NCBI GenBank assembly: GCA_002633005.1
Contig: NMRA01000186.1
Location: 351,479 to 415,478, forward strand
Origin: Phoronis australis
Lineage: Eukaryota; Animalia; Phoronida
Length of the DNA stretch: 64,000 nt
Direction of reading: 5' to 3'
In this document: positions 36,007-61,546 of the stretch, in pieces
Layout of the letters: each line of letters starts with the position of its first letter
Numbering within the stretch: the stretch's first letter is position 1
Translations under genes and position numbers: made by a program
The notes under the pieces: generated by a model
What the model saw: only the letters and a program-made list of their open reading frames with translations
What the model was told of the DNA's origin: nothing
Database searches by the model: none

Positions 36007-36099
36007 AGAATTTCCCGTCTTAATGAAAAATTCCCATCTCACTGCGCGAAGGAGGAATGGCTTTAAATAGGTTCGTTTGCTTTGAAAATTCACACTTGC
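36007..36099 (+). promoter_or_regulatory. Core promoter of ZnF-coil gene 1: two kappaB-like motifs, TTTAAATAG box, TTCACACTTGC initiator-like motif
   Basis: AGAATTTCCC 36007-36016, AAAAATTCCC 36026-36035, TTTAAATAG 36062-36070 and TTCACACTTGC 36089-36099. The same order recurs upstream of genes 2 and 3. Confidence 0.6.
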
Positions 36100-36128: not shown

Positions 36129-37099
36129 ATGGCAGAACTGTGCATAATTTGCCAAACAACATGTGCAGACGAACGAAGTTTGATGGAGCACTACATGCAA
36201 CAACACAAGTGCATCCCCAGCAGTAAGTAGATCACGTGGTAGCTCGCCGAGAATTTGAGGAAAGCTGTCCTCGCCTAAGATTCGTACATTATGACTGGCA
36301 TCTGCATTATGATGAAATTCGATTTTGCTTTAACATAAATTGTTGACTAAATAGTAGCTTTCATTAATTATTAAATATAAGTCTACACTAAAAAGTATCA
36401 ATCTTATGCAGTCAACTATAAGAGCTGCCGTTTATGCTGTCATTGCCCCACTTTTTCATACATGATGTGCATAATATCTCTTTACATGCAGTAAAATAGT
36501 TGGGACGTTGGCGTTTCCAAGTTCAACACATGAGAGCACATGTATACCAATTAGTTCAATGAAGTCTACCGATCGTGGGTAGATGACTACGAGCTCAAGT
36601 CCAGCATTAGGCACGTGCTATGAGGGGAACCGTTATATACGCACCACGTACTGATACATACGTATAAGTCTGTGTGCGTTGAGCTACAATTTAAGTATAG
36701 TACCCAAATACACAAACACCGGTGTATTTTACAATATCATGTATTATAATTACAGCGTACAATGACGCGCAGAAGATGCTGATGCTGCAGTTGCAACTGC
36801 AATTAGCACAAGAGAAAACGAAGCAGTTGCAAATTGAAAAAGACCACGAGTTACGCATGCAGGAACGAGAGCTGGCACATCAAGAAGAAATGCAGGCAGC
36901 AGAGAACCAACGACGCCGGGACGACCACAAAATGGAGATGATCAGAACGTACATGAAACCGAAAGTAACAGAAAGAACCACAGTGAAGGAAGGATGGTTC
37001 TCCACAACTAGGACGACCGATAGATCGGAGACAGTTCCCGACATTGCAAGTGTCCTTGAGAAATTCAACAACGGCGGAAGGCTCGCTCTAACTCAATGA
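36129..37099 (+). CDS. ZnF-coil family gene 1, join(36129..36222,36756..37099), 145 aa: C2H2 finger + 1 helical repeat + conserved C-terminal module
   Basis: Exon 1 encodes MAELCIICQTTCADERSLMEHYMQQHKCIPS (C-x2-C-x12-H-x4-H). Donor A|GTAAGT and acceptor TTACAG| form a phase-1 intron that joins in frame to YNDAQKML...EKTKQLQIEKDHELR...KPKVTERTTVKEGWFST...ETVPDI. Confidence 0.85.
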
Positions 37100-37559
37100 A
37101 TGTAAGAACACAATCAGTTTTAAAGCCTAACTTCAACGGAATTTTGTTATTTTAGATGTACTTGGCTAACCAGGTAGCAAAACCTTGGCAAAATAAGAAA
37201 ACGCAACTGTAAGCCTGTCAAATGATAAGTGAAGCTCATTTCGTGTCCTATTGCGTCACAACAACAAAAGACCGATAACAGCTGTATTTAATAGGGGTCT
37301 GGATAGAACGTCATTGCGCGCGGGTGTTTCTCGCAGTTGTGATTCTCACGGTGACGTAAGCAAAGCAAGTCAATACACCTAACAGTTCATTACATGTGAT
37401 AATTGATAATTTTTGGCACTAGTTGGCTCAGAGCGATGCTCTTAACATATTACAGGCACTCAGAAATTTACTGGTGTTATCTTTTAAGCTAGGCCTTAAG
37501 ACATGCCTTAATTTGAAACCAGCATTGCTTTCTGATTTAGCTAGCAGCAGTAATACATC

Positions 37560-40500
37560 AAATGAAAAAGAACAAAGAGCAGACAAAAATACCGTTGTTT
37601 CCATGACATACACAACTCAATTCATGGGTAGCATTTTGCATGTAAGGATGGTCGATCGAAACTTGAAAAAGTTGCCATAATGAAATGTTAAGGCGAAGTG
37701 AGTTAAAAACAAGCCAGATTTCCTGTGAATATGAATTTATTCATGTTCAGAACAAAATTCGCTGTTCTTAAGATTTTGATTACAACCGACTGACGTTGCG
37801 TGTGAGACACGTATTGAAACCATGGCCGTTAAAATACGCTTGATATTCTGCCATTTAGTGCTGGCTGCCAGCAAAGCGAAGAGGGTGAGTTTGATTCCGC
37901 GTTTAGCCGGCGCTGATCTCAGCAAACCATTTTTCTCACTGATACTGTTGCTTTGACACTTTGAATAAATTTAGAAGTCAGTATATTTAACACATTTAGA
38001 CACTACATTGTTTATCACGTACGGCAAGAGTACCGTTCATTCTGGTAGAAGAAAGCAATGTTAATACCTCCGCCGACAAGACGAAGGTCAGGTTCTGCTT
38101 TAGCCCAAAATGAAAAGGAAAACCATGTATTTTGGAAATTCCAGAAAAACCAATATTGATTTTTCGTGGAATGCGTAACCACAATCTTATTTCTTGCGTT
38201 TAATAATAGATCATTCATCCACGCCCTGCGTCATGGGATTTTTATCGGAGGTCATGTGAAACTTTTTCATACCTTTCAGACCGAATTAATTATTTATACA
38301 GGGAAGTTTTCAGACGTTTCAAACTCAAACAACCGTGAATGAACTTCGCTTGGTACAATAGCTTCACGAACCAATTCATTTCTGCGCTATAAACTCAAGG
38401 AGAAATAAAATATGTTGCTGGGTCACCAATATTTTTATTTGGTGAAAAGAAAGAAATTTCTCCATGTTCGTTGCTTTGTTGTACATTTCTAAGCACGAAA
38501 TGGCATCATGTACGGTAGACCTGAATCGCCAAGAGCTTTCGTAAGTGAGTTACCCGTTCCTCCGTAACATTCTCGAGATTTCACTATGACTATTTTTTAT
38601 TTTAAGACTTCTTCCAGTGACAGATTTAGGGATTCGGAAGTGCCTGGTAATTCGGAAGTGCCTGTGTTTAACGGGCACAATCCTGGCTAATACTCTGCCC
38701 TGGCCCCCCTAACTCAAAATCCTGGATCCGCTGCGGCGAGTCTTGTATTGTACATGTAGCTCCGGCGTCATTTGACCAATCTGTCTGCAGTACATCTTTT
38801 TTGAGTGCTAAAAAATTAACAATAATCGTTTTTTGGTTCCGACTTAATCATTCTAGAGTTGTCAGATAATTTTACAGACACTCTCACTTCACTTGTTAAA
38901 AGCGCAATGCTAGTCGCAGTTTTGTGACTGCATTTATTATTTAAAATGCCTATTAAATTCTCATTCAATCAGAACCAAAATGATGTAGACCAATTGACTG
39001 TTTTAAAAGGTTCATCTTGGTTTCTGGTCGTTCTTGCTTCCAAAAGCAATATTTTTTATGACAGGACGTGAAGCTAGACTTCCAAATCTGGGGCGATATT
39101 TATGACAGTTCAAAATGTGAAAATAGAACCCTTGTTTATACCAAAAGCTAGATTATTTTGTCCCACGTCAATGCCTGTGCGCTCTAAAACATGACTTATA
39201 TTTATCAGTCCGAAACAAGCAAAGATAGTGATCTTCAATCACACCTACCCACGTCCGTTAACCGAAACAGATACCACAATGTATTGCCAAAAAAACCCGT
39301 GGCAGGCCCGCCACACAATCGGTGCCGATAGATAAGAACTTACACAGTAGGATATAGGACAACCCCTGGAAGGCCAACTTCGATCTCGCGCTACTGAGGC
39401 TGCGCCGAGCACACGTGGAATTAATTTGCTTTCCTTTGTTCCAGTGCACGTGTTATTGCTTTGGAATTTATTATCACTACAACATTTCGCTACTCCGCCG
39501 TTTTTCAACCGAATTGCACGTATGATTGCATCAGAGGCGAAAGGCAAATGATTTAATTCATAAATAATTTCGTATACTTGACAAGTTTAAAAGTATTTTT
39601 GATGTGAAAACCAAGACTGTTTACCAAAATGAGAAAAACAACCGAATGCTCTAGATTGATTTACGCCAGGCGTTTGATATGATTCATAGCCGTTTATGGC
39701 AACCGCTAAAGTCATATTATGTTTGCCATGTAATTTCTATGATGTAAATTTCTACGAGTCATTGTCACAAGAAAGCATTCCAAAAACATGGGCGCACTCG
39801 ATATTGGACTTGCCAATGAGCCACTTTTCACTTTCCATAACTTTTCCATCTTGAACGTGAGTTGAAGACCAATAATGATGTCGGTGTTATTTGCAGATGA
39901 TCCGGTTGTATTCTGTGAGAATTGAATTGCAACGGCCGATAAAGAAAGTTAAAGTGTATTGCATAAAATGGAAGCTAGGCATCAACATGTCAAAAACCAG
40001 AATTGTGGTATTCAGAAGAGGACACTTACGTAATTATGAAAAATGGTTCATTAATAAAGAACAAATCATTGTTGAGGCTGTACCTATTTTGCTACTAAAG
40101 GTGTCTAGACAAAAACTCAATCCAATTTAGCTGATGAGGCTGGAAAAATCTTGTTTTTGTTGAAAAAGTATATGTGATAATTGGGAAGTGTTCCTGTAAA
40201 TGTTTGGTTGCAATTGTTTGATACAAAAATACGCCCTATAATTTAATAGTCGATATCGTGTCAACCACTTTGCTAATTACGCACTTGTATTTGTTACTTC
40301 CATACTTGTATATGGGCCGGAGGTCTGAATTCTGAAATAAATTGACTTTATCCACGCATCGTCTTTACTGTCGTCGGTTCCAGCGTTGTCCTCATTATCA
40401 GTAACTACATATCAGTAACTAAAAGATTATTACAAGTTCATGTACTATACAGATAAAAAAATCATCATTGTCTTCAGCACTGAGCAGCAGTTGTGTTTAT

Positions 40501-41165
40501 CGCTTACCAAACTCATATTTCATCTAAAGACTTAAATTGATTTGTTGGCCTGTTCGAAGGCCGGCAACTGCGGGCTTCCGAATTGCACATAAAATGAAAG
40601 GTTCCCTGTCAAAACAAAACTCACTAACTTCACAAATTTATGTCATGTATCAATGACCAATTGCTATTTTAGAAATGTCAAATCAGCATTTATTTGTCTA
40701 GTCCCAATGGTGAACAATACAAAAATAAATTTGTTTACCATTGTGGCATCTAGTTGAATAATCTTTGATCATAAGACTTAACAGCACTTGTCAACTTCAC
40801 ATCAAATCAATATGGTTTCAAGACATACACTCGCCATGAGTATATCCTAAGTTTGGTGAAAATCCGTGACTCACTTTTTCAGTAGTTCCCCAGAGCCCAC
40901 ATGGCAAATCCTGAAAACGATGGCCAGAAAAGCTGGAAAAACCAATAACTGAGCTGAACGCACTGACACCGGGCATAGTCCACTAACTGAAAACGACCAT
41001 TATGTAGAATACAATTCAAGGAAACGTTTTGTAGATATAATACACATGGGAGTAAAGTTAGCATGTTTGAGTTGAAACGCATATCTCAAGAAGACTTGCA
41101 AGATTCCAATTTCTCACAGTAAACCTACACAACAGTATACAGCCTAGGTTGCATTCCATACCAAG
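37560..41165 (+). repeat. Duplicated intergenic spacer, unit A
   Basis: Collinear blocks are shared with 42082-45330, 46130-47070, 51170-54330 and 58040-60390, for example CAAAATGAAAAGGAAAACC, GGGGCGATATTTATGACAGTTCAAA and TACCCACGTCCGTTAA. Confidence 0.88.
39870..40350 (+). mobile_element. CR1/L2-group LINE 3' fragment inside unit A
   Basis: LFADDPVVF, YCIKWKLGINMSKTRIVVFRRG and LQLFDTKIRPI, ending at AATAAA near 40336. Confidence 0.65.
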
Positions 41166-41196
41166 AAAGAGAGAGGGGGAGGGAGAGGGAGAGAGA

Positions 41197-42008
41197 NNNN
41201 NNNNNNNNNNNNNNNNNNNNNNNNNNNNNNNNNNNNNNNNNNNNNNNNNNNNNNNNNNNNNNNNNNNNNNNNNNNNNNNNNNNNNNNNNNNNNNNNNNNN
41301 NNNNNNNNNNNNNNNNNNNNNNNNNNNNNNNNNNNNNNNNNNNNNNNNNNNNNNNNNNNNNNNNNNNNNNNNNNNNNNNNNNNNNNNNNNNNNNNNNNNN
41401 NNNNNNNNNNNNNNNNNNNNNNNNNNNNNNNNNNNNNNNNNNNNNNNNNNNNNNNNNNNNNNNNNNNNNNNNNNNNNNNNNNNNNNNNNNNNNNNNNNNN
41501 NNNNNNNNNNNNNNNNNNNNNNNNNNNNNNNNNNNNNNNNNNNNNNNNNNNNNNNNNNNNNNNNNNNNNNNNNNNNNNNNNNNNNNNNNNNNNNNNNNNN
41601 NNNNNNNNNNNNNNNNNNNNNNNNNNNNNNNNNNNNNNNNNNNNNNNNNNNNNNNNNNNNNNNNNNNNNNNNNNNNNNNNNNNNNNNNNNNNNNNNNNNN
41701 NNNNNNNNNNNNNNNNNNNNNNNNNNNNNNNNNNNNNNNNNNNNNNNNNNNNNNNNNNNNNNNNNNNNNNNNNNNNNNNNNNNNNNNNNNNNNNNNNNNN
41801 NNNNNNNNNNNNNNNNNNNNNNNNNNNNNNNNNNNNNNNNNNNNNNNNNNNNNNNNNNNNNNNNNNNNNNNNNNNNNNNNNNNNNNNNNNNNNNNNNNNN
41901 NNNNNNNNNNNNNNNNNNNNNNNNNNNNNNNNNNNNNNNNNNNNNNNNNNNNNNNNNNNNNNNNNNNNNNNNNNNNNNNNNNNNNNNNNNNNNNNNNNNN
42001 NNNNNNNN
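41197..42008. other. Assembly gap (812 N) flanked by (GA)n microsatellite
   Basis: Run of n; GA-rich sequence at 41165-41196 and perfect (AG)n at 42009-42080. Confidence 0.99.
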
Positions 42009-42081
<73 letters not shown>

Positions 42082-42083
<2 letters not shown>

Positions 42084-45000
42084 ACACAATTCATGGGTAG
42101 GATGGTAAATCGAAGCTTGAAAAAGATGCCATAATGAAATGTTAAGGTGAAGTGAGCTAAAAACAAACCAAATTTCCTCTCAAGATCAATAATTTTTTGC
42201 TCAGAACAAAATTTACTGTTTTTGAGATTTTGTTAAAAATCACCGATTTCCTGTACCATTTAGTGCGGACTAGGGTTTATGACCGCCAGCAAAGCTGAGG
42301 TACATAGATTTCGCGTTTGGTTGGCTCTTATTTCAGCAAACTATTTTTCTCACTGGTAATGTTGCTTTAACACTTGAATTAATTTAGAAGTCAGTGTATT
42401 TAACCCATTTCGACCCACTATAGTTTATCACATACATGTACGGCAAGAGTGCCGTTCATTGGTAGTTTTCTAGCAATGTTAATACCTCCGCGGACAAGAA
42501 AATTTTCAGAGTGCTTTACCCCAAAATGAAAAGGAAAACCATCTTGCAACAATGAACAATAGGCTAGTCACATTTTGGAAGCTCCAGAAAAACAACACTG
42601 ATTCGCGGAATAGACCAATCATCCATGTACCGCGTGGGATTTTTGTCTACTTGGTTTTCCCGTGGTCATGTAAAAACCCTTACAAACCGGATTAGTTCTT
42701 TATATTGTCAAGTTGCCACAGCAAATGATTCAAGCTCAACAACCGTGAATGAACCTGGTATAATGGGATCACGACCCAATTTATTTCTGCTCTATAAACA
42801 GAAAGACAAATATGTAGCTGTAATCGATATTCTTACTGGGTAAAACGAAATTTCTCCATAACGGACGTTTTGTTGTAAATTTTGTTTTTTTAGCTTTTAT
42901 TGTAAGTTCCCTTCGTACAGACGAAATGGAATCATATAAGGCAGAGCTCGTAAGGGCTGTCATAGGTGATTAATCCGTTCTTCGGTACGACCTACTGTTC
43001 TCGAGCTTTTACGATTACTTTTATATTTTATGACTTCTCGTGCCGTAGCTCCGGCGTCATTTGACTAATCTGTCAGAAATTTGCCACAAGAATAGATCTT
43101 GTTGGGTGCTACGAAAAGTTATCAGTAGCCGATTTTCCGACTTAACCGTTCTAGAGTTATTCGATTATTTGACCTACACTCTCAGGTGTTAAAAACGCAA
43201 TGTGAGTCGCGGTTTTGTGACTGCATTTATTATTTCCGTCAAATGCCTATTAAATTCTCATTCAGTGTCAAAATCATGTAGACGACTTTACAGTTGTAAA
43301 TTCAGGTTCGTCTTGGTTTCTAGCAGTTCTTGCTTTCAAAAGCAACCATCTTTTAATGTCGGGACGTGAAGATGGACTTCCAAATCTGGGGCGATATTTA
43401 TGACAGTTCAAATTGTGAAAACAGAACCCATGTTTAAACCAAGAGCTAAATTATTGTGTCCCACGCCAATGCCCGTGTGCTCTCAAAACATTACCTATTT
43501 TACAGTTCCAAACAAGTAAAGATAATGATCTCCCATCACATTTACCCACGTCCGTTAACCTGCACAGATAACCCAATGCATTGCCAACGAACTCCATGGT
43601 AGGCCTATCACAAAATCGGTGCCCATAGCGAGGTATAGGACACTACCCCTAGAAGCGCAACTAAGATCTCGCGTGTCTGGGGTTGCACCGAGCACGCGTG
43701 CCCCTTATCAATTCTTGGTGTATGATTCCACCAGAAGCAAGAGACAATGAGCTTATAAGTCAATTATTATTATTTCGTATACTTGGCAGGTTCAAAGTAT
43801 GTTTTAATCTGAAAACTAAGATTGTTAACAAAATGGGAAAATAACGGGGTGTAATAGCGAAGTAAAAAACTAAATGAACCAGAGAGGTTATAAACGACTA
43901 GTTAAGCCAACTGGGAAACGATTTCAACGATTCAAATCATTTCTACCCAATAAAGACAAAGATTTTAGAATAAGAGTCCCTCACAATTGCTATGAAGAAT
44001 TTAGTCAGACATTCAGGCAAAATTATACATCTTTATACATTAACTAGAACACTGGTGCCCTTTTATACAGTGACATACTTCAGTAAAAATTCAGGACTCA
44101 TTGAAATTTACAAAAATGTGATCAAATAATTACTCCAGCTATTTATCCAAAATTTGCAGATAAAGGTTTTCTGATAGATGAAAACATGGGCAAATATCTA
44201 CTATGTAGCTTTGAATTGTACTGTGGATAGCTCGTTACATTGGTTGCAGTGTAGGACTTTCCACAGAAGTCTGATGTATGATTCAGCGGGAACTGTGCTG
44301 TGGTGCTCTAGATTGATTTACGCAGGGCGTTTGATACGGTGAATAGCGATTCTTATACGTTTATGGCAACCACTAATGTTCCCCATGTTGCGCATCTGTA
44401 AAAACTCAGTGCCCGGTCATATTATGTTTACCATGTAATTCCTATGGTTTAAATTTCTAACAGTTAATTTTCACGAGAAAGCATAACAGAAAACATGGAC
44501 GTATTCGATATGGGACTTGCCAATAAGCCCCTTTTCACGTTCTATAAGGTTTCCATGCAACGTCTTTACTGTCATCGTTGCCAGACGCGTCCTCACAATT
44601 ATGCATGTATACAAATGTCATCATAGTCCTGAGCAGTGATCGGCTATTGTGTTAATCGCTTAACAAACTCAAATTTCATCTAAATATTTGAATTCATTAT
44701 CAGCCACTTCGAAGGCCGGCCACTGGACCTTCCAAATTACACATTAAATGAAAGGTTTCGTGTCAAAACAAAACTCACACATTGATGACATGTATTGATG
44801 ACCAATTGATACAGTGTATTTCAGAAATGTCAAATCTTCATTGAAATGACGAACCTCAATGCAAAAATGATTTTTTTTTATCTTTGTTGGTGATGAGTAA
44901 TACACGATCGTAAGAAATAGAAGAACTTTACGTTAAGTCAATGTGGTTTCAAGATCTAGACTCGCCTTATGTGTATCCTAAAAGATTTGTGAAAATCTGT

Positions 45001-45330
45001 GACTCACTTTTTCAGTAGTTCCCCAGAGCCCACATGGCAAATCATGAAAACGATTTCCAGAAAATCTTGGCAAATCATGAAAACGATTGCCAGAAAATCT
45101 GGAAAAACCATTAACTGAGCTGAGCGTACTGACACAGGCATTGTCCAGTAACTAAAGACGGCCATTACAGTATGTAGCAGGCATTGGACGGTAAGGTTAC
45201 AAGACATTTGAAAGTAAAGTTAGCATGTTTGGCTTGAAATGCATATCTCAGGAAGACTTGAAAGATCCCAATTTCTCACAGGAAACCTGAACAACACCAC
45301 GCAGCCTCGACTGCGTTCCATTTTTTAACC
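42082..45330 (+). repeat. Duplicated intergenic spacer, unit B
   Basis: Starts CAATTCATGGGTAG...AAAAGATGCCATAATGAAATGTTAAGG like 37618-37693. Ends GACTCACTTTTTCAGTAGTTCCCCAGAGCCCACATGGCAAATC...CAATTTCTCACAG like 40868-41119. Confidence 0.88.
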
Positions 45331-45419
45331 ACATCTTGGAACACCAAGAAATAACAAGAACAACAGACTGAGAGAGAAAGCAAGTCGTGATTTAATTAAA
45401 CATCAACATTCAATATTTA

Positions 45420-46110
45420 CGTTTAAATATGAATTAACGTTTATTCATACTCGAGGCCATCGGCCCACGGTACTTACATATCAAACACAACAATAAAATA
45501 CAGTGAATACGCATACGCATGTGTAGTAGTTTCAATCCTCAAGTAGTTTTTGTTTTAAAACAGAAGTGTGGTATACAATTTGATTAGGTTTCTAAGCACA
45601 CTGGGATCAGAAATTTCCATTAATCTTAACGTAGAAAATATATCTGAAACTAAATAAGGCGATCCAGATCCTCCCAAGGATAATATTGTTTCATGAATTG
45701 AAGAATATAAATCGGAAAATAAAACAACAAGAATGGATCAACTGAAATCCACCATTAGTCGGATTGCTCCAATGTATTCAAGGTAACATTCTACTTCTCT
45801 AATCATCATAACATGGACATATTCAGATAAAGTGATATTCATTCTCAATAAATTTTTAACCAAGGTTCTGTTTACATAAAGAAGAACATATTCGGAGGAC
45901 TTCATCGATTGGTAAGCTTCGACCTACCTCGACCATCAGTCTCTGATTTGAACGACGGAATCTTGCAGCGAGGTAACTCAAAAGAAAAATATGTTTCAAG
46001 AGTAAACGTCGTTTTGAAAAGTGGATATGTACACACTTTCAAGTTATTTTGCACGTCTGTGTTCCATTCTTGCAAAAAGCAATCATTGACTCTTCGTTCA
46101 AGGGTACTTA
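45420..46110 (-). mobile_element. Probable CR1/L2-group LINE 3' end separating units B and C
   Basis: On the minus strand, GGGCCGATGGCCTCGAGTATGAATAAAC resembles the 3' end at 40313-40341. The coding remnants are very degenerate. Confidence 0.4.
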
Positions 46111-46129
46111 GGAATAATTTTTTTCATCC

Positions 46130-47070
46130 GACGCCTTGTTCAAAGCAGCAAACTGTATTTTTTCTCACTGATAATGTCGAGTTAGTATACTTAAACAAGT
46201 TTTTAAATTCCACCACATTCAGAAAATTTAACGAAAAAATATCCAATAGCCTAAACTGCATATTATTACACGCGACCTATTTCTATCAACGTTAATACCT
46301 CTGCGGACAACAAAAAGGTCACACATTCTTTTACCCCAAAATGAAAAAGAAAGCCATCTTGCAAGAGTGAGGAGGCTAGTCACAATTTTGAAATTCCAGA
46401 AAAAGCAATGCTGATACTTGGAAAGTGTAACCACAATCATAAAGGTTTTATAGCCTTTCAGTTTGTGTTTTTCAATACATGTTGATTAATCACCCATGCA
46501 CCGCGTCATGGGATTTTTTCGATTTGTTTTTCCCCCATGTAATGTAAAAAACCCTTACAAACTTTCCAGTTAATTAACGACCTCAATAGGTACCACGTGT
46601 CCATGACTCAATTCACCTCAAGGAAAATAGATATTGTTGAGTGCAACAAAAGGTTAACAGCAACCGTTGTCTGGTTCCGACATAACAGTTCTCGAGTTTA
46701 CTGGATTGCTTGTTAAACGCGGCATGTGAGTCGCGGTTTCGTGGATACATTTGCTATTCAAAATACCTATTAAATTCTCCATCAATGCCAAAATGGTTAA
46801 GACCACTTCACCGTTATAAATCAGGCTAATCTTTGTTTCTAATCGTTCTTGCTTCCAAATGCAATCACATGGTACATGTGGGTCGTAAAGCTGAACTTCC
46901 GAACCTGGGGCGATATTTATGACAGTTCAAAACTTGAAAATAGAACCCATGTTTATAGCTGAGCTAGAACAGTGCGTCCCATGTCAATGCTTCTGAACTC
47001 TAAAACATGACCTATATCCATGCATCCGATACAAATAGAGACCTCCCATCACGTCTGTTAATCTGAACAG
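46130..47070 (+). repeat. Duplicated intergenic spacer, unit C (partial, cut by a LINE)
   Basis: Shares AAATTCC(A/G)CCACATTCAGAAAATTT with unit D (51624), plus CCCAAAATGAAAAAGAAAG and GGGGCGATATTTATGACAGTTCAAA. Confidence 0.82.
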
Positions 47071-50000: not shown

Positions 50001-50340
50001 TCATAAAAAATCACAAGAAATATTTCCTACTTTTGAAACCGAAGTTCCAAGGCCAAACAACTGCCAACTGAGACCTTATGAATACCTTTAACTTCATATT
50101 CAAAATTGCTGTTAAATAAAATGCACACACCCCTAGAGTTTCCAGTCCCATGACTGAAATGACATTCTAACCCCCCCCCCTCAGTTCTCACTATGCTTTC
50201 AATATCCCTAGTAAAGTGAGTGTATTGACGAAAAAACATTGAATGTTATAGTTGCTTAATATAGTTAAACACATCTTTGCGTCTCAAAAGGAAACCCAAA
50301 CCTCTGCAATTCACTGAGAAAATACTAATCATTGCGTTGT
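47070..50340 (-). mobile_element. Decayed, internally deleted L1/Tx1-clade LINE C
   Basis: ORF2 starts MISIFSVNCRGLG at ~50333. It has FSHGTGNSRGVCILF, KNNKNPGIDGFTVEFYK, NWRQISLLNINYK, NPFWKDV and C-terminal DRCTFCRNEPETLEHL. A (CA)n 3'UTR lies at ~47126-47150. Confidence 0.85.
47885..48537. mobile_element. Foldback/MITE-like insert with alternating-orientation ~38-bp subrepeats
   Basis: Ends CACGTTTGGTAAAG and CTTTACCGACAGGTG are imperfect TIRs. Internal GATGGGTCCATCTATATAAATATAACT units alternate with their reverse complement over 48290-48480. Confidence 0.6.
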
Positions 50341-53300
50341 GTAAGGGACTGGAATTACCTGCAAGTACGATACACCGAAACATAGAGCTAAAAGGAGGAA
50401 CCAAGCTGGTCGCATAGAGATGGTTCTGGCAAGTTAAACAATAACTTGCGAACTACGTACTACATCATTTTCCGTGAGATATCTTACACTATGAACTGGG
50501 TCGAGGACTTGAATTATTCTATGGAAATTTTAACCCAGTGAGAGATTTGTGAGTCCAATAATTTGGAATCAGTCTTGAGGGCTTGTTTCTTGCGCGAAGG
50601 TCAGGACGAAATCTTTGCACAAAAATAAGAAAAAGCTTCAGAAAGCAAGCTACAAGGACTACGTAAAATCGAGTGTCACACCCTTATTTCAGATTATGGA
50701 TGTTCGCAGTGATAAATTAACGCTAGCAACAAGAGAACGTGTACATGTAGCTGTCCAGTTTTACCATATCAATTTTTTACGTTACTTCGTCTCGAAACAC
50801 GGAGTTAATTTTCCAATAAAAGGACCAGTCCTATTGTCATTGACGGATAGCTAGGGTTTACACGAGGCAGAAAAGGGAGCCTAGTACTACCAGCATAGCT
50901 TGTCAGCCGGTAATGTAATGATTACAACAAAGTTGTCTTGGATTTTTTCTAGAATCTTGTTTGCCTTTTGCAGGTGCAAATAAAAGACTTACCTTCTAAG
51001 GAAATGCTATCACGTTTACAGGAAATAAAGTTGACCATCGAGCACTGTCTAAGTTTGCTCCTTTTTTCTCTGGCAAATAGACAAGACCAACATATCCGAT
51101 TAACATTACGTCATCGTTCTACTCCTACCCATTGCAAACTTTGTGATATATTCTGCATGTATATCAACATTTTATGGTACAATTGAAAAATAATAAAGAA
51201 CAGTTAAAAATACCCTCGTTTTTATGGTAAACACATCACAATTCCTGGGTAACATTTTGCATGTAAGGATTGCAAAAAAAACTGCAATTTTATACTGATA
51301 AGTCGATGAACTGATTCAAAAACAAGCCGGATTTGCTGTCAACGTAACGAGTAATTTTTTACTCGAAACAAAATTCTCTGTTTTTACGATTTTGTCAGGA
51401 ACCACCAATTTCCACCTTTGCCTGGCAGACACTTATTAAAATCAAGGGCGATAACTATAATATGCTTAAAACGTCAATTTCATGTGTAGGGCAACACCGC
51501 TAGAAGAGGTGGGGTTGTGAGTTAGCGTTTAGTAGGCACTGATCTCAGCAAACTGTTTTTTAGCAGAATAATGTCGCTTTAGCATTTTACACAATTTTAT
51601 AAGTCAGTGTATTTAAAATTAATAAATTCCGCCACATTCAGAAAATTTTGCGAAAGAAATACCCAACAGCCTAAATTACATATTATTACACACAGGTTTT
51701 GCTAGCAATGTATAATACCTCACGGACACACACTCTTTTACACGAAAATGAAAAGGAAAACCAAAAGTGAGAAAGTAGTCACATTTTGGAAATTCCAGGT
51801 GTGTCAACACTGATTCGTGGAATGTGTAACCACAATATTATTTCTGGCGTTTATTAATAGATCAGTCGATTGCTTTTCCCTGATGTCTTAAGAAACTTGT
51901 TTATTTAATTAACTACAGTGAATGAACCTTAATAGGTACAATGGGTTCACCACCCAAATCAAACTCAAGAAAAATGAATAGATGCTGTTGGGTGCTACGA
52001 AAAATTAACAGTAACCGTTTTTTGATTGCGACTTAATCGTTCTCGAGTTATTCGATTATTTGACCGTCACTCTCATGGTGAGTAGCGGCTTTGTGACTGC
52101 ATATTCTATTTAAAAGGAAAATTGAATTCTCATCCAATCAGTGTCAAAATGACGTAGCCCACTTTACATTTGTAAATTTAGGTTAATCTTGGTTTCTAGT
52201 AGTTCTTGCTTCCAAAGGCAATTAATTTTATACGACCGGGCTTGAAGCTGGACAAATTTGGGGCGATATTTATGACAGTTCAAAATGTGAAAATAGATTC
52301 GATGTTTATACCAAGACGTCCAATTGTGTCCCATGTCAGAGCCATGACCTCGCAAAACATGAACTTAATCTATCCTTCCGAAGTAAAGATAGTGATCTAA
52401 CATCATATTTAACCTACCCACGTCCGTTAATGCATTGCCAACGTACTCCATAGTAGGACTCCCACACAATCGGTGTCGATAGCGAGGTAGTCAGGATCAC
52501 AGGACACTACCCCTAGAAAGTCAACTTAGGTCTTGCGCTGATGAGGTTGCACCGCACACAAGCGCGATTTGTTTGCATTCGTTTGTTCTGGTGCTGGTTC
52601 CTGCTTTGGAATTTATTGGCACTAACTTTTCGCTACTCCGCCGTTTTTCAACTAATTTTAATAAGAGTCATATCATTAAAATGACGCTTACCAGTTATTG
52701 ATGTATGATTACATTAGGAGTAAAAGACAAATAATTTAACTTATAAATTATTATAATTTCACGTACCAGAGAGGTTTAGTGGTATTTTTTCAATCTGAAA
52801 TCCATGAGTGTCACCAAAATGCGAAAAATAACTGGTGTAGTAGTAAAATAAAAAATGAACCAGAGATGTTTAAAACGATTGGAAAAACCAGCTGGGAATG
52901 ATTTAAAACATTTCTACTCAATAAAGAAAAAGACCATCCCTAAAACTTGCTGTGAAGAACTTAGTCATGCAAAATTATTCATCTTCATATTCATGTATTA
53001 GTTGGACCACGCCGTTTGATACAATTGTTCTTCATCGAAAAATACAAAATATGTGATAAAATAAATACTCCAGCTATTTACAAGGAAATTTGCAGATGTA
53101 GTTTTTCTGATAGATGAACACCAAACATCTATTATGTAGCTTTGAATTGTACCGTGGATAGAAGTTTGATGAACAGAAAACAATTTCGTATAATTCAACG
53201 GGAAATGCTATCGATTCATTTACGCCAGGCATTTAATAGGATGGATAGCCGTTTCATGTGGAAACAGTACTTTCCATACACCTGTAAAAGCCTAGTGTCC

Positions 53301-54560
53301 ACTCATATTATGTATTTCACGTTATTTCTATGGTGTAAAATTCAACGAGTCATTTTGCCATGGGACTTGACAATGAGCCCCTTTCCACTTTTCATAAGTT
53401 TTCCAAGCACTGCATTTACTGTCATCGTTGCCAAGGTGGTTATCAGTATCAGTAAGTGAGAAATTCTTCAGATGCATGTACACTAAAGATAAAATTCATC
53501 ATTCTCTTCAGTAGTGATCGACAATTGCGTTAATCTCTTACGAAAGCTAACTCTCGTCTAAAAATTTGGATTGATTTGCCAGCCTGTTGGAAAGCCGATC
53601 ACTGGGGCTTTCCCAATTGCGCATAAAATGAAAGGTTTGATGTCTGAACAAAACCCACCGATTTTACGGAGTTATGACGTGAATTCATGACCAATTTTAA
53701 TTTTTGAAATGCCAAATCTAAATTTTGCTGTTGAGTCCAACGCGCTACACTTCTGCCTTTAATGAAAGGGTGAGGGGTTGTAATCAAGGTTGTAATTTTA
53801 GTACTAACTGGAACTAAACGAATTGATACAGTGATAACGTTTACAGTGCAAATAGTGTCTTAATAACCCCTTAATAACTTTCGTCTTTAAAAATCCTATA
53901 CTACAAGCACTGACAACAAAAACGATATTTTACCTCACTCCTCAATTTCCCATTAACGATCGTTGGTTTTAAATGCGCTTCATACCTGGTTTCTTCACTT
54001 TGCTTTTAGTACTCCAGTCTATTTTTTGTTTCCTGTTGTGTGGCAACATGTTTTGTGGCAGATTTTCATCCTCAGGAAAACATAGAAGTCACCTTTCGCT
54101 CACCGACCCACCTCATCTCATTGATTTGATTTCCCAGACTTTTGGTTTTAGCTTATTAAGTCATCCATATTTAAAAACCAAAAACCATACCTATGCTGTT
54201 CTTTCCAAATGAATTCCTTCATGTTTATTTTTAACGAAAATTATTGGTGTCTGCATTTTGAAATTTCTCCATTACGAGATGATTACTACAGATTGGGGCC
54301 GGTAATTACATATTGGGTCTTGCTTGCACTAGACAATGCGGTCGTCACAACTGTGGGCGATTCTGGCACCGCGCCCCGGCACTGATTCTCAGGTGAAAGC
54401 CGCTCAGAACAACGTTGAAAGAGCAGCGGTGAAAATTTCACGTTTTTATTTAGAAGTGCTTGTTTTCTTTGTAAGCGAATCAAATTTCACGGCATTTAGT
54501 AGAAAAAATCGTTGCCAGTTTCGTATTTACCCATGCCGTTGCTGTTACTAGAGAGTGCTT

Positions 54561-54643
54561 TGGCCTTTGACCTTCATAGTGTTAGTTGGAATTTCCCATC
54601 GGTCCTTAAATAGATTTCTTTTCTTAGGATATTTCACACTTGC
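54561..54643 (+). promoter_or_regulatory. Core promoter of gene 2: DR1-type element, consensus kappaB site, TTAAATAG box, initiator-like motif
   Basis: TGGCCT-T-TGACCT 54561-54573, GGAATTTCCC 54588-54597 (reverse complement GGGAAATTCC), TTAAATAG 54606-54613 and TTCACACTTGC 54633-54643. Confidence 0.7.
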
Positions 54644-54664
54644 CTTGTGAGCCTTCTGATCAAG

Positions 54665-55587
54665 ATGGAGAAAAAATGCCTAGCATGTGGACAAACCTTT
54701 GAAAACCTACAAACATGGACTGAACACTGTAAAGAAACACACGGTGAGTGTATTTCTAGCAGTAAGTACTAAAGTTGAGGCTCATCGAGAACTTGCGGAA
54801 AGCGATCTTCGGCCTAAAATTGTGCATAGCGACTGGCATGCATTACCATGAAATTCACGTTTCTTTTAATATAAGTTACTGACTAAAAGTAGCTTTCAAT
54901 TCCTTAATTATCAAATATAAGCCTGCACTAAAGTACAGTGTACCAGTCCCAAGTTATGCAGTCAACGAAAAGAGCGTACAGTGTACGAGCCTGCGTGCGT
55001 TCATAAAGACAAATGTTGAGCTATACGTGTGTATATTAGTCAAACGCACAAACGCCAGTATAATTTACAATATCAAATTTTCGATTGCAGGGTTAAATGA
55101 CATGGTTCTTTTAATGCAAATGGAGATGCAAATGCAAATGCACAAGGAGGAGGAGAAAACCAAACAGTTGCAAATGGAGAATGATCACGAGTACCGCATG
55201 CAGGTGGAAACGAAGGCGGAAGAACAGAAAACCAAAAAGTTCCAATTTGAGAAAGAACGCGAGTACAATATGCAGATGCAACAGCAGCAGGAAAAAGAGG
55301 CAACCAGACAGTTAGAAATTAACAAAGAACACGAGTACCGCATTCTCCAAGCAAACCAGGAACATGACGTAAAAATGAAGGCAGAAGCGAACCGACGACA
55401 TATGATGGACATCCAAAATGACCTCTATCAATCCTATTTACGACCAAAAAAAGTAACAAGAACCATGGAGAACAGAGGTTGGCTCTCTACAGAAGTGAAG
55501 ACCGAAACATCGGAAGAACTTCCCGACATTAGGGGTCTCATTGCAATTGGCGGGTTCAGCAAGGGTAATTTGGCCATTACTCAGTGA
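54665..55587 (+). CDS. ZnF-coil family gene 2, join(54665..54761,55091..55587), 197 aa: C2H2 finger + 3 x 24-aa repeats + C-terminal module
   Basis: Exon 1 encodes MEKKCLACGQTFENLQTWTEHCKETHGECISS. A GTAAGT donor and TTGCAG acceptor (phase 1) join it in frame with LNDMVLLMQ...RPKKVTRTMENRGWLST...EELPDI. AATAAA at 55684-55689. Confidence 0.88.
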
Positions 55588-55829
55588 ACGTAAGCACAGA
55601 ATCAGTCTTAATGCCTCAGTTTTGAAACCAATATATTTTTCTTTTTCCTTCAGCCGGTTATCGTACTACATCAAATGAAAAGCAATAAACAATTCATTCC
55701 TGGTAACATTATATTGGCCGTCGCTTAATATCTTCTGAAAATGTAGAATAGAGAAATATATTTGTGATATTGGTGATACTGATGCAGATCAACCTTTGTG
55801 GTATAACCACTTAATTTCAACAGGAAATA

Positions 55830-56565
55830 AGTGTATGTTCTACAGACAGTGATGTAAACGAGGAAGTACTTAATATGTCCTCGATCTGTTTGTCAGCTCT
55901 AGTAATACTTTGTCCTATCAAGATTTATGCAGGAGGAATGATTTTTCTCCACCAACAACACTTTATTATGATATTAAAATATCAAGCTCATCGACATGGA
56001 AAAGAATGAAAAACGCTACTTTCAATTTGCTACCACCTCATACATTGTATAAGGAAGTATTTGCAAGGGAGCAAAAAAGGATAAACAATCTCAGATTTCA
56101 TGGGAGAGTCGAATAGATATTCACAATACTGTTTATTGGTGGAATATGACCCATGCCTCGTGCATGAATTTTTTTATATTATATTACACTTCGGTGGTCT
56201 CAAATTCGATTGCACATACGATTATAACAACAAATGTTTAGCTTCATAAGATGAATATTATTGATACTGACTTAATTCTGTCCTCAGGAAAGAGAGACTA
56301 ACTTGCAAGATACCACAAGTCCCTATCAAATGCGTTTTTCAGGTATCAAAGACAGAAGTAGTAAACTAATAAAAATTGAAACATTGCAACTTTTTAAGAC
56401 TGATGGGGAGCTATTCTCCCTCTACTGGAAGTTTAATGACACGAATAATTTTGAGTGTGCTTGTGCGTGTACTGTACATGTACTTGTATATGTGTGTAGT
56501 ATAAGACGGTATAAGTATGGAATGCAACTATGTTTGAGATATGAAAATAAACGTATTAAAAAGAA
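55830..56565 (+). mobile_element. 5'-truncated L1/Tx1-like LINE 3' fragment
   Basis: Remnants such as HTIITTNV.LHKMNIIDTDL, a TG-rich 3'UTR, AATAAA and an A-rich end at ~56546-56563, as in the other L1/Tx1 3' ends here. Confidence 0.6.
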
Positions 56566-56574
56566 CTGACGAAG

Positions 56575-57080
56575 AGTTTTGTAGAGATGCAGCTTCTGTG
56601 TTTGCTTGGTCGACACTAACCGATGGCGGAAAGAACTCGCAAATTGCCAAGAATTTATCTCCTGTAGGGATTGCAAGAAGTGGTTGAAATAATTTAGCTA
56701 GACCGTTCAATATGGGAAAGGCAGCGTCTTACATGTACATGTATGTTGTCTCTGTACTCGCTGGCAACGTATCGAGCATCAGGAACCTCAATCATCAATT
56801 TTCGGTATGTTTCGTGGAAACCCAGAGCTGTTGAAGTTGAAGTGCACTGCCTTTTTGGTATACGCCTTTTGTCCGCAAATTCTTTCCCGGGATTAGCGCT
56901 TAAAGATCTGGCAAATCGGACGTTTGCATAAATCTGACTCGTGAGCATTCATTTCCTCGGTGGAATTCCTGATTTTCTCGAACGATGAAACAGTTCCAAC
57001 GATTAGACTCAATACATCCAGAATATTAAGCTCTTCATTCTGTAAGCGAATTTTTGCCTTTTTCTCGATCACGCGCACGC
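56575..57080 (-). mobile_element. Possible hAT-like transposase C-terminal remnant
   Basis: Frameshifted segments LQNEELNILDVLSLIVGTVSSFEKIRN, EFADKRRIPKR and YRKLMIEV.DA...EYRDNI resemble the region before the hAT dimerization domain. Recognised from memory only. Confidence 0.4.
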
Positions 57081-60000
57081 ATATAAAAGCAAACTAAGAA
57101 GAAATCGTAATTCAGCGTGACAGCGTCAAAAAATAAAAATTAAATCTTGATTTCCGTCGGTTTAGCATTTCTTGCGAATAAAAAAGAACAGCAGAACCCA
57201 GTGACACAAACCATATTATGAAGTGCATGTAGGAAAAACGAATCAAAAAAAGTCCGCATGGTACAGCTATGAACGCAAAACAAAACAAAACAAAACAAAA
57301 CTAGGAGGGGCCACAGCAGTCGAAGTCGCCGTCAACCGTTCTCTTCACACTGAGAACGTAAACGCCAATTATCAAAATCATCCTTAGAATGGTTTAGTTG
57401 ATACAGGGACGGACGCCAAAAAAACAGACTCGAAAACAGCAAAAAATGCCCTCTTGGTGGCGCAAAATATCTCGAATCCATTCGAAAATAGGAGGATAGT
57501 ATCATCTCACAAAGACGAAAACCCGGCACAGAAATAAGTAAAAGCTTCAGAAAGCAAGCTACAAGGATTGCGTTACACCGAGTGTCACATCATTGCTTCA
57601 GATTATAAAAGTCTGTCGGTTTAAACTAACGCTAGCAACAAAAGAACGTGTACATGTACATGTAGCTATCCAGTTTTAACATATTTACGTTATTTCGTCT
57701 CGAAACCCGGAGTTAATTTTCCAGTAAGAGAACCTGTCCTATTGTCGTTAACGGAATGGTAGCGTCTACACGAGGCAGAGAAGGGAGCCTAGTACTACCA
57801 GCATAGCTTGTCCGCCGGTAACGTAATGATTACGACAAAATTGTCTTTGGTCTTTTCCAGACTTTTGTTTTCCTATCTCAGGAGCAAATAATAGACTTAT
57901 CTTTTGAGAAAATGCTATTAAAGTTTACCATCACTGTCAAAGTTGGCTCCATCTTCTGTGGCAAATAGACAAGACCAACACATCCTACACCATTGCAAAC
58001 TTTGTGATATATTCTACAAGCATATCAACTGTTACATTTTATGGGATAATTGGGAAATAACAAAGAACAGTTAAAAATACCGTCGTTTTTATGGTAAACA
58101 GAGCACAGTTCCTGGGTAGCATTTTGCATATAATAGGGATTTCCAACAAAAACTCTGCGATACTGAAAAGTCGAGGAACTGATTTAAAAACAAGCCGAAT
58201 TTTCTCTCAACGTAACGAGTAATTTTGTGCTCCAAACAAAATTCGCTGTATTTACGATTTTGCAATAAACCACCAATTCCCATCGTTGCCTGGCAGACAC
58301 TTGTTAAAACCAACAGTCTAACTTTCATATTATTACACAAGGCTTTTTTCTAGCAATGTATAATACCTCAGCGGAGACACACTCTTTTACACAAAAATGA
58401 AAAGGAAAACCAAAAATGAGCAAGTAGTCACATTTTGGAAATTCCAGGAAAGTCAGCACTGATTCGTGGAATTTGTAACCACAATATTATTCCTTGCCTT
58501 TTTTTTAGTAATAGATCAATGACACGTGGGATTTTTCTATTTCCTTTTCCCCGACGTCATGTAAAAACCCATAAAAGCCTTTCAAAACCACTCAAGTAAC
58601 TTGTTTATTTTTCAACGACAGTGAATGAACCTTAATAGGTACAATGGGTTCACGACCCAATTCAAACTCAAGAAAACTCTGATTAGATCCTGTTGGGTGC
58701 TACGAAATGTTAACCGTTTTTTTTTTTTTGGTTGCCGCTTAACCGTTCTCGAGTTATTCGATTTTTTGAGTAGCGGCTTTTGACTGCCTTTACTATTTAA
58801 ATGAATATTAAATTCTTATTCAATCAGTGTCAAAATGACGTAGCCTAGTTTACCGTTGTAAATTTAGGTTAATCTTGGTTTCTAGTCGTTCTTGCTTCCA
58901 AAGACAATTAACTTTATACGGTAGGGGTGAAGCTGAACTTCCAAAATTTGGGGCGATCTTTATGACAGTTCAATATGTTTATACCAAGAGATAGAATTGT
59001 GCCCCATGTCAATGCCATGAGCTCTCAAAACATGACTATAATCTATCCGTCCGAAACAAGCCAAGGAAGTGACCTCCCATCGCATTTACCCACGTCCGTT
59101 AATCTTAACATAAGCCACATATGCATTACCAACGTACTCCATAGTAGGACTCCCACACAATCGGTGCCGATAGCGAGGTAGTTAGGATCTCAGAACACAA
59201 CTACTGGATAGTCAACTTCGATCTAGCGCTGATAATGTTGCGCCGCGCACAAGCTTGATTTGTTTGCATTTGGTTGTTCCGGTGCTGGTTCCTGCTTGGA
59301 ATTTATAGGCACTAACTTTTCGTTACTCCGCCGTTTTTCAACTAATTTTAATAAGAGTCATATCATTAAAATGCCTCTTACCAATTATTGATGTATGATT
59401 AAATCAGAAGTAAAAGACAAATAATTTAACTCATAAATTATTATAATTTCACGTACTAGAGAGTTTTAGAGGTATTGTTTTCGATCTGAAAACCAAGAGC
59501 GTCACCAAAATGTTAAAACTAACGGGTGGAGTAGTAAAATAAAAATGAACCAGAGAGGTTATAAACGATTAGTAAAACCAGCTAGGAAACGATTTCAATG
59601 ATTGAAACATATCCCTACACAATGAAGACAAAAATTAGTGAACAAAAGTCGCCGTGAAGAATTTAGTCAGGCATTCATGCAAAATTATACGTCTTCATAT
59701 ACATGTATTAGTTGGACCACGCCGTTTGATACAATTGTTCTTCATCAAAAATTCAGGGTGCAGTGACATTTACAAAAAATGTGAAAAATAATTACTCCAA
59801 AAATAAGGAAATTTTGCTGATGAAGTTTTTCTGATGGATGAAAAATGGACAAACATCTACTATGTAGCTTTGAATTGTGTGGTGTATAGAAGTTTGATGA
59901 ACAACACAAAACAACCCCATATGATTCATTTACGCCAGGCATTTAATACGATGGATAAGCGTTGCTTATGGAAACGGTAGATTCCATGCAGTGCACCTGT

Positions 60001-60598
60001 AAAACCAGTGTCAACTCATGATATATTTTCACGTTATTTCTATGGTGTAAAATTCCACCAGTCATTTCGCCATGGGACTTGCCATTGAGACCCGTTTCAC
60101 TTTCCATTAGTTTTTCACGCACCGCCTTTATAGTCATCGTTGCCAGCCAGGGTCGTCCTCCCGAGAAATTGTTACTAGTTCCTTTGGGTGTATACCACAT
60201 CATTCTCTTCAGTATTGATCGACAATTGCGTTAATCCCTTACGAAAACCAAATATCGTCTGAATATTAAAAATTGTTTTGTCAGCCCTTTTGAATGCCGG
60301 TGACTGGGGAATTCCTCATAAAATGAAACGTTCGCTGGCTAAACTAAACCAACCAAAGTCATAGATTGATGACGTGGTTCATGACCATGCGGTCGTTACA
60401 ACTGTACGCGATTCTGGAACCGCGCCCCACACTGATTCTCAAGTGAAAGCCGCTCAGAACAACGTTGAAAGAGCAGCGGTGAAAATTTTCACGTTTTCAG
60501 AAGTGCCTGTTTTCCCTGATCGAATTGATTACGGCATTTAGTAGGAGCTTCGCCTGTTTCGTGTTTACCCAAGCTGCTGCAGCTACTAGGGAGTGCTT

Positions 60599-60681
60599 TG
60601 GCCTTTGACCTTCATAGTGTTAGTTGGAATTTCCCATCGGTCCTTAAATAGATTTCTTTTCTTAGGAAATTTCACACTTGC
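60599..60681 (+). promoter_or_regulatory. Core promoter of gene 3: DR1-type element, consensus kappaB site, TTAAATAG box
   Basis: TGGCCTTTGACCT 60599-60611, GGAATTTCCC 60626-60635, TTAAATAG 60644-60651 and TTCACACTTGC 60671-60681. Confidence 0.7.
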
Positions 60682-60702
60682 CTTGTGAGCCTTCTGATCA
60701 AG

Positions 60703-61546
60703 ATGGAAAAAAAATGCCTAGTATGTGGACAAACCTTTGAAAACCTACAAACATGGACTGAACACTGTAAAGAAACACACGGTGAGTGTATTTCTAGCAG
60801 TAAGTACTTAAGTTGAGGCTCATCGAGAACTTGCGGAAAGCGATCTTCTGCCTAAAATCGTGCATAGCGACTGGCATGCATTACCATGAAATTCGTTTTT
60901 ATTTTCATATAAGTTGCTGACTAAAAGTAGCTTTCAAATAGAGCGTACGAGCCTGCGTGCGTCCATAAATACAAATGTTGAGCTATACTGTAGGTGTGTA
61001 TATTAATCAAGCGCACAAACGCCGGTTTAATTTAATAACAAATTTTCGATTACAGGGTTTGATGACGTGTTTCTTTTAATGCAAATGGAGATGCAAAGGC
61101 AAATGAAGCAGGAAGAAGAGAAAACCAAACAGTTGGAAATTGAGAAAGAAGACGAGTTCCGCATGAAGATGCAAATGAAACAGGAAGAAGAGAAAACCAA
61201 ACAGTTGGAAATTGAGAAAGAATACGAGTACCGCATGCTGAGGCAAATGAAGTGGGAAGAAAAGAAAACCAAACAGTTGCAAAATGAGAAAGAATACGAG
61301 TTCCGCATGCATAAAAGAAAACTGGCACTTGCAGAAAAAATGAAGGCAGAAGAGAACCAACGACACCTTATGGACATCAAAGAGGAAATAATTAAACCCT
61401 ATTTACAACCAAGAAAAATAGAAATAACCACGGAGAGCAGAGGTTTGTTCACTACAGACGTGAAGACCGAAACCAGAGAAATACATCCCGACATTGCGAG
61501 TGTCTATAAGAAGTTCAACATCGCGGGTTCTTTGCCAATTACTTAG
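60703..61546 (+). CDS. ZnF-coil family gene 3, join(60703..60799,61056..61546), 195 aa: C2H2 finger + 3 x 24-aa repeats + C-terminal module
   Basis: Exon 1 encodes MEKKCLVCGQTFENLQTWTEHCKETHGECISS. A GTAAGT donor and TTACAG acceptor (phase 1) join it in frame with FDDVFLLMQ...QPRKIEITTESRGLFTT...EIHPDI. Confidence 0.88.

Follow-up and report, generated by a model that had tools for sequence, protein, structure and literature searches.

According to the excerpted text of PMC5491942, the SpTransformer (Sp185/333) family of sea urchins consists of small, clustered two-exon genes with a short conserved exon 1, which encodes a hydrophobic leader, and a diverse repeat-bearing exon 2; some codons are under positive selection, the proteins have Gly-rich, RGD and His-rich regions, and the genes are induced in immune responses. 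Segmental duplications of these genes, and short tandem repeats at their edges, are described in an excerpt of PMC10887614. A comparable organization was found in a 64,000-nucleotide stretch of the phoronid Phoronis australis (contig NMRA01000186.1, positions 351,479 to 415,478; hereafter the window, with positions counted from its first letter). It contains a tandem family of three two-exon genes, all on the plus strand: g1 (36129-37099), g2 (54665-55587) and g3 (60703-61546). Each encodes, in order, one C2H2 zinc finger, a long charged helix containing 24-residue units (one in g1, three in g2, three in g3), a beta-hairpin tipped by GW/LF/L and a helix at a Pro-Asp-Ile (PDI) motif, the helices and the hairpin being predicted. 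The three genes almost certainly form a real protein family.

The likeness to SpTransformer extends to the segmental duplications around g1-g3, to the amino-acid excess in exon 2, which parallels the positive selection there, and to an AG microsatellite beside a gap of 812 Ns, where the sea urchin genes have short tandem repeats at their edges. Immune induction, shown for SpTransformer, we infer for g1-g3. In contrast to the sea urchin family, exon 1 here encodes a zinc finger in place of a leader, the proteins are predicted to be helical without an export signal, and none of them has Gly-rich, RGD or His-rich regions (Gly 2-4%, His 3-4%, no RGD in the translations). Judged by sequence, the family is organized like SpTransformer but is not a member of it. 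Four features had escaped the first-pass annotation: a conserved promoter with kappaB-type, TATA-like and initiator-like elements, unequal expression between runs, an excess of amino-acid change in exon 2, and segmental duplication. The first three are new to this study.

A second system offers an analogy for how the proteins might work. The flotillin wall, as portrayed in the excerpted text of 10.1101/2024.05.09.593390, has an alternating pattern without heptads and, at its end, a beta-barrel. Flotillin/SPFH walls and, by prediction, g1-g3 share a long charged helix that lacks heptads and is patterned at every second residue, and that is followed by C-terminal beta structure. No SPFH (Band 7) domain was found in g1-g3 by Pfam at E ≤ 1, and the 26-residue finger that precedes the helix leaves no room for one; flotillin has, in the same excerpt, one strand where g1-g3 have a hairpin, and g1-g3 are much shorter proteins.

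Gene models, splicing and expression

The first-pass annotation of this DNA had proposed three two-exon genes with a first coding exon of 94-97 nt and a phase-1 intron at the same position in each. Its gene coordinates were confirmed, and its models translate without internal stops. Scans with DNA and protein profiles found exactly three coding copies in the window and no decayed copies, and the 812-N gap at 41197-42008 could hold a further, hidden gene copy. The predicted proteins have 145 (g1, from predicted splicing), 191 (g2) and 189 (g3) residues.

Reads of four sequencing runs (X1 to X4) were mapped onto positions 50000-62500, a region that covers g2 and g3, and joints with at least three reads were tabulated. 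X2, X3 and X4 belong to one study, with 1.6-1.8 Gb read per run, and X1, which we guess to be RNA, belongs to another. In X4, the g2 junction 54743/55091 was crossed by 28 reads with 20 distinct starts and the g3 junction 60781/61056 by 23 reads with 19 distinct starts, both with ACG/GTGAGT at the donor and AG at the acceptor, while in X2 and in X3 a single read crossed the g2 junction and no read the g3 junction. In the X4 junction reads the first mate always mapped to the minus strand, an orientation that denotes plus-strand RNA in most stranded libraries.

Phase 1 and the acceptors at 55091 and 61056 were therefore as the earlier models had them, but the donors of g2 and g3 were found 18 nt upstream of 54761 and 60799, where no joint of at least three reads was listed; exon 1 of both genes thus comprises 79 coding nt by the reads, and its donor lies directly past the second His of the finger. 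The claim of a shared intron position also had to be given up, as g1 lacks the GTGAGT donor used by g2 and g3. Among the five GTs that lie 60-125 nt past the g1 start codon, the sole phase-1 one is GTAAGT after 36222. With spliced reads for two of the three genes (g2 and g3), and with no homologue found in the sequence searches, the view that the family is functional and unrecognised was upheld.

Joints from exon 1 of one gene to exon 2 of the other were also seen in X4 (8 and 5 reads), as expected because exon 1 is identical at 76 of 78 nt between g2 and g3. For g3, a joint that jumps back 216 nt (3, 1 and 1 reads) suggests a variant with three extra 72-nt units. In X1, three distinct exon 1-exon 2 junction contigs were found at depths of 399-802, and one contig differed by 41 letters over 55098-56446.

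The depth over the two coding exons of g2 and g3 was 36.6 and 34.6 in X4, versus 0.7-1.3 in X2 and X3, a difference of about 30-fold; a repeat-derived pile-up at 57089-57505 was, unlike these depths, even across X2-X4 (13.5-15.7). Short repeats at 57089-57510 and 61990-62500 drew many part-fitting reads in the three raw runs and represent multi-copy elements, transcribed and located downstream of the two genes. In the g2 3' untranslated region (UTR), 9 extra letters were present at 55759 in 30 of 31 X4 reads and in the X1 contig, which points either to a difference between alleles or to an error in the assembly.

Promoter elements

With the start site (+1) placed by motif spacing, a TATA-like TTAAATAG at -29/-30 and an initiator-like TCACACTTGC at +1 are common to g1, g2 and g3, and TCACACTTGC occurs three times in the window, solely at these three promoters. 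In g2 and g3, a kappaB-type site, GGGAAATTCC on the minus strand, is located at about -47/-48, 8 nt before the TATA-like box. According to an excerpt of 10.1101/2024.07.03.601930, this 10-mer is the strong reference kappaB site of IFN-beta1 and Cxcl1/2, and the kappaB consensus is GGGRNNYYCC. Near the start, the match to this consensus, which we used as the criterion for an NF-kB target, is exact in g2 and g3 and degenerate in g1. The g1 promoter retains TTCCCATC, TTAAATAG and TCACACTTGC, spaced as in g2 and g3, together with a second degenerate site.

Strict kappaB-type sites number six in 63 kb, and four of the six lie upstream of g2 or g3 at a distance of at most 1.1 kb. Besides the g3 promoter site, a strict site is present at 60306, in the duplicated segment upstream of g3. 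The chance of a strict site in a given 100-nt window is about 1%. The conserved kappaB-TATA-initiator arrangement is a putative regulatory module, its function being suggested by the consensus sequences.

Protein architecture

Finger and tail were both as previously annotated: the C-x2-C-x12-H-x4-H finger was found in g1, g2 and g3 alike, and the C-terminal tail Y(M/L)xP..G(W/L)(F/L)(S/T)T..E..PDI..L(A/P)(L/I)T aligns across the three proteins. Each protein has one finger and no tandem fingers, and so lacks the array of DNA-binding poly-C2H2 proteins. The finger scored below every Pfam gathering score, was nearest to classical C2H2 fingers, and among solved structures best matched a pair of ZNF423 fingers (E 7.8e-5, with 2 stretches summed). 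It shares its spacing with classical C2H2 proteins such as ZNF423 and Kaiso, and differs from them in being a single N-terminal finger with no linker to a second. No UBZ finger was found among the weak Pfam rows of the two exon-1 peptides or among 12 PDB rows, where the 26-32 residues compared are too short to exclude one. NEMO, optineurin and TAX1BP1 are adaptors that combine a coiled coil with a UBZ finger; they resemble g1-g3 in having a finger and a long helix in a single small protein, but g1-g3 have no heptad coiled coil.

The helical middle proposed by the first-pass annotation was reproduced in the AlphaFold model of g1 exon 2, which had a mean predicted local distance difference test score (pLDDT) of 83.7 and contained a helix (residues 2-66), two strands (69-78 and 83-92) and a second helix (96-104). 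The strands form a hairpin of 10+10 residues with GWFS at the turn, and the short helix lies past PD. The tail modelled alone gave the same elements at a pLDDT of 66. The proposed absence of a signal peptide is consistent with a hydropathy scan, in which neither a hydrophobic leader nor a membrane span was seen and the best 19-residue hydropathy was 0.31-0.71.

The helix does not have the pattern of a heptad coiled coil. The hydrophobic power at period 3.5 was 0.02-0.04, and hydrophobic pairs at lag 7 numbered 3, 4 and 5 in g1, g2 and g3, below the means of shuffled sequences (3.5, 7.9 and 9.6); hydrophobic residues did not recur in the helix at lags 3, 4 or 7. Pairs at lag 2, on the other hand, numbered 8, 17 and 17 versus 3.9, 8.3 and 10.0 in shuffled sequences (P 0.008, <0.001 and 0.001). 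By helix geometry, hydrophobic residues at every second position should therefore form two seams on opposite faces.

Sequence evolution

Identity between g2 and g3 is 77% over exon 2 up to PDI, 88% over the flanking duplicate, and 97% over exon 1 together with the intron's first 100 nt. Over the 438 nt of exon 2 up to PDI there are 99 mismatches and no gap, compared with 53 frame-shifting gaps over 1911 nt of duplicated intergenic DNA nearby. About 12 frame-shifting gaps were thus expected in exon 2, and none was seen (P(0) about 6e-6; P of no stop about 0.002).

The changes between g2 and g3 in this part of exon 2 comprise 88 nonsynonymous and 11 synonymous ones. The proportion of nonsynonymous differences (pN, 0.24-0.25) exceeds that of synonymous differences (pS, 0.13-0.15); the intergenic mismatch rate (0.124) is similar to pS, and pN is about twice the intergenic rate. 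A one-sided test of the amino-acid excess gave p 0.074 without and p 0.006 with a transition bias of 2. Between the X1 contig, which contains no stop, and g2 there are 22 nonsynonymous changes and one synonymous change (p 0.066 without and 0.029 with the same bias). Synonymous sites of g1 differ from those of g2 and g3 at 44-49%. An omega of 3.5 obtained for the tail was dropped, as misaligned columns after PDI had been counted. Taken at sequence level, the pattern is suggestive, though not proof, of diversifying selection on exon 2 beside a homogenized promoter and finger.

Homologue and fold searches

The searches were made with exon-2 frames and not with spliced proteins. In a word-indexed search, which covers sequences of near the same length and leaves longer or fused relatives outside its scope, none of 7 candidates held up for g1 exon 2 and none of 3919 for the three-sequence alignment. 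A phmmer search of 1.84 billion representatives gave three matches at E ≤ 0.001, which were rejected as long tandem-repeat proteins that sum 5-20 weak stretches. Pattern matches were confirmed in 0 of 599 and 0 of 592 cases in metagenome contigs, 0 of 359 in viral contigs and 0 of 75 in prokaryote genomes. No Pfam family was matched at its gathering score, and the tails matched none; ATAD3_N (E 0.008) was rejected as a match of helix composition. NCBIfam gave only TolB (E 0.069), and PDB sequences gave no matches; OspA matches of the tail profile were rejected as sums over engineered repeats. As searched, the collections of 5.8 billion and 1.84 billion sequences yielded no relative of the family.

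Searches of the ESM Atlas gave best scores of 0.77 and 0.78, which are leads only; weak ones point to two clusters without a name (67 and 192 residues; 0.78 and 0.75), mostly molluscan where known. Foldseek found no PDB or viral structure at E ≤ 0.001. The VIA fold search returned generic long helices for exon 2 (best Z 6.7) and a best Z of 2.7 for the tail alone. The top rows for the tail, 3zqm and 3zqp, belong to the oligomerization core of phage small terminase, which has a helix, a long beta-hairpin and a helix as in the g1-g3 tail, but their Z scores are no higher than background, and unrelated rows tie with them (Z 2.7, root-mean-square deviation (rmsd) 4.0, 47 aligned residues; Z 2.4, rmsd 6.8, 54 aligned). 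For this likeness, no sequence match in viral contigs and no viral structure at E ≤ 0.001 was found. A literature search by title and abstract, which left subscription journals outside its scope, found no published description of an architecture of finger, repeat helix and hairpin.

Possible function and alternative explanations

We propose, tentatively, that g1-g3 are an NF-kB-inducible, diversifying intracellular defence family that assembles laterally through helix and hairpin, perhaps into rings, a reading that we consider possible but short of probable. Induction of the family under immune challenge or stress is, taken by itself, on balance probable, and a ring-type oligomer is somewhat doubtful. 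Rel/NF-kB would bind the kappaB-type site at about -47 and fire the TATA promoter during infection. The hydrophobic seams on opposite helix faces would allow subunits to stack side by side, as in the flotillin wall, the hairpins of the stacked subunits would form a barrel, and the number of repeats would set the length of the assembly. Contact with a pathogen or its membrane would fall to the fast-changing stalk and hairpin, and binding of a host partner to the conserved finger.

In its most far-reaching form, this proposal describes a new class of intracellular invertebrate effector, in which NF-kB-fired, finger-capped subunits would build alpha-helical barrels of tunable length, an aromatic-tipped crown of hairpins would engage or perforate membranes of pathogens or vacuoles, and diversification would proceed through the gain of repeats and through positive selection, with promoter and exon 1 kept homogenized; we regard this as quite unlikely. 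In invertebrates, clustered and diversifying immune families of the SpTransformer type are mostly secreted or surface proteins. If the immune reading is true, the same genomic logic, with a zinc finger in the place of the leader, would suggest an intracellular diversifying arm. If it fails, a well-supported orphan family of modest interest would be left, lineage-restricted fast-evolving families being common in invertebrates.

Several observations weigh against a diversifying, NF-kB-induced assembly. Tissue, stage or individual accounts for the 30-fold gap in read depth among X2-X4 as well as induction does. The g2 and g3 promoters are 94% identical and represent one recent duplicate, and so one observation rather than two, and the kappaB-type sites of g1 are degenerate. 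The selection tests are borderline without transition correction, the g2/g3 and X1/g2 tests share the g2 lineage, and the repeats compared are possibly out of register. The repeat-free tail alone gives 17 nonsynonymous to 2 synonymous changes (p 0.15), and omega of exon 2 versus g1 is 0.5-0.9. As to assembly, the lag-2 tests of g2 and g3 count repeated units several times, the AlphaFold input comprised only three sequences with predicted template modelling scores of 0.40 (g1 exon 2) and 0.30 (tail), and flotillin, in the excerpted description, alternates small Ala/Gly with Glu, whereas g1-g3 alternate large Met, Leu, Ile, Tyr or Phe with charged residues.

The high depth in one of three sister runs also fits a tissue difference, and the genes may encode proteins specific to a tissue or stage (for example those of gametes or of a secretion-free, structural kind of cell), whose fast evolution has causes outside immunity, with the kappaB-type site incidental. 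Reproductive proteins, too, typically show positive selection, and TATA-initiator promoters also mark tissue-specific genes. This explanation is nevertheless rather unlikely, in that a perfect strong kappaB 10-mer stands 8 nt before the TATA-like box, with a chance of about 1% per 100-nt window, and kappaB-type sites are retained in the diverged g1. An origin as a domesticated or captured transposon piece (a gag-like helix with a finger) multiplied with its flanks is the most improbable of the alternatives. The genes lie among duplicated segments of 4-7 kb, decayed retroelements occur elsewhere in the window (RVT_1 at 20502-21053), and alternating Leu/Glu helices occur in some Gypsy gag proteins; however, the genes have a spliceosomal intron and a 3' UTR of about 1 kb, no inverted repeats of at least 30 nt surround them, no long open reading frame besides exon 2 is present in 33-64 kb, and nothing was matched in any protein library searched.

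The helix could serve an inducible adaptor in another way, as a monomeric charged single alpha-helix that acts as an adjustable spacer between a host-binding finger and a target-binding hairpin, with no ring. Its 36-49% charged residues, the ratio of opposite- to like-charge i+3/i+4 pairs (12:4, 23:8 and 34:16) and the lack of a 3.5-residue hydrophobic period agree with this, and single alpha-helices elsewhere are, in the excerpted accounts, charged monomeric spacers. Yet large hydrophobics account for about one in four helix residues, in an alternation that is not random, and a lone hairpin of 10+10 residues without a core would be unlikely to be stable without partners, so that we consider a spacer unlikely. 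It is very unlikely that the alternating stretches are beta-strands, with the 24-residue units forming amyloid-like fibres or, once activated, refolding into a beta-barrel in a membrane: hydrophobicity in g2 and g3 is most strongly periodic at 2 residues, and Gln/Met-rich alternating runs occur in g1, g2 and g3, but AlphaFold renders the region as helix with a pLDDT of 88-95, the units are Gly-poor (2-4% overall) and their polar face is heavily charged.

Coordinates of the features in the window

Feature	Position	Strand	Basis and details
g1 promoter	36008..36099	+	Consensus; two degenerate kappaB-type sites (36008, 36027), TATA-like TTAAATAG (36063), initiator-like TCACACTTGC (36090)
g1 exon 1, predicted, 94 nt	36129..36222	+	Gene model; C2H2 finger; donor GCA/GTAAGT
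g1 exon 2, coding part	36756..37099	+	Helix with one 24-residue unit (~36782-36853), beta-hairpin (~36962-37033), PDI helix, stop
Two non-coding duplicated segments (37559-41159 and 42099-45321) around 812-N gap (41197-42008)	37559..45321		65-90% alike
Further partial duplicate copy	46180..47069		65-90% alike
Duplicated non-coding segment upstream of g2	50605..53718		~88% identical over aligned bases to 57514-60387
g2 promoter	54588..54643	+	Consensus; GGAATTTCCC (GGGAAATTCC on minus strand) at 54588, TATA-like at 54606, initiator-like at 54634
g2 exon 1, coding part, 79 nt	54665..54743	+	C2H2 finger ends at second His; donor ACG/GTGAGT; junction reads 28 (X4), 1 (X2), 1 (X3)
g2 intron, 347 nt, GT..AG, phase 1	54744..55090	+	Spliced reads
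g2 exon 2, coding part	55091..55587	+	Three diverged 24-residue units (~55123-55338), stalk, hairpin (~55447-55518), PDI tail
g2 3' UTR, ~1 kb, end approximate	55588..56570	+	AATAAA at 56546; read depth to 56255-56671 bin; X1 contig to 56446
Duplicated non-coding segment upstream of g3	57514..60387		Strict kappaB-type site at 60306
g3 promoter	60626..60681	+	Consensus; kappaB-type site at 60626, TATA-like at 60644, initiator-like at 60672
g3 exon 1, coding part, 79 nt	60703..60781	+	C2H2 finger; 76/78 nt same as g2; 23 junction reads (X4)
g3 intron, 274 nt, GT..AG, phase 1	60782..61055	+	Spliced reads
g3 exon 2, coding part	61056..61546	+	72-nt tandem repeat x3.1 (61091-61311, 88% matches), stalk, hairpin (~61412-61483), PDI tail

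Duplicated segments and other features of the window

With a GC content of about 38%, the animal DNA of the window contains introns, decayed retroelements and a gene of the leucine-rich repeat (LRR)-immunoglobulin (Ig) type. From 36 to 62 kb it is a run of segmental duplicates that are 65-90% alike, three of which carry or flank a gene of the family. The AG microsatellite, at 41180-42081, borders the 812-N gap between duplicated units. Rfam gave no matches in 33-64 kb.

On the minus strand, an open frame of 966 codons at 11348-14248 encodes many LRRs (LRR_8, E 3.6e-88), a weak match to Ig I-set and a hydrophobic end, and was identified as an LRR-Ig receptor-like gene; no close relative of its protein was found, with identities of 23-34% among the best 120 of 229 rows. 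Broken frames on the minus strand at 29758-31401 resemble what we take to be pol pieces of a long terminal repeat retrotransposon; two of these frames were tested and gave no Pfam match at E ≤ 0.01. Fragments of retroelements of the long interspersed nuclear element type occur on both strands at 16400-25400 and 47400-49100, with RVT_1 at 20502-21053 and the others judged by eye. An open frame of 312 codons with a VWA domain (E 2.2e-6) is located on the minus strand at 1286-2224. An element of about 1.1 kb at 2338-3453 has long terminal inverted repeats (arms 2338-2418 and 3376-3453, 87-95% complementary) and is probably a non-autonomous DNA transposon, and a 17-nt tandem repeat is present at 10499-10576 in 4.6 copies with 96% matches.

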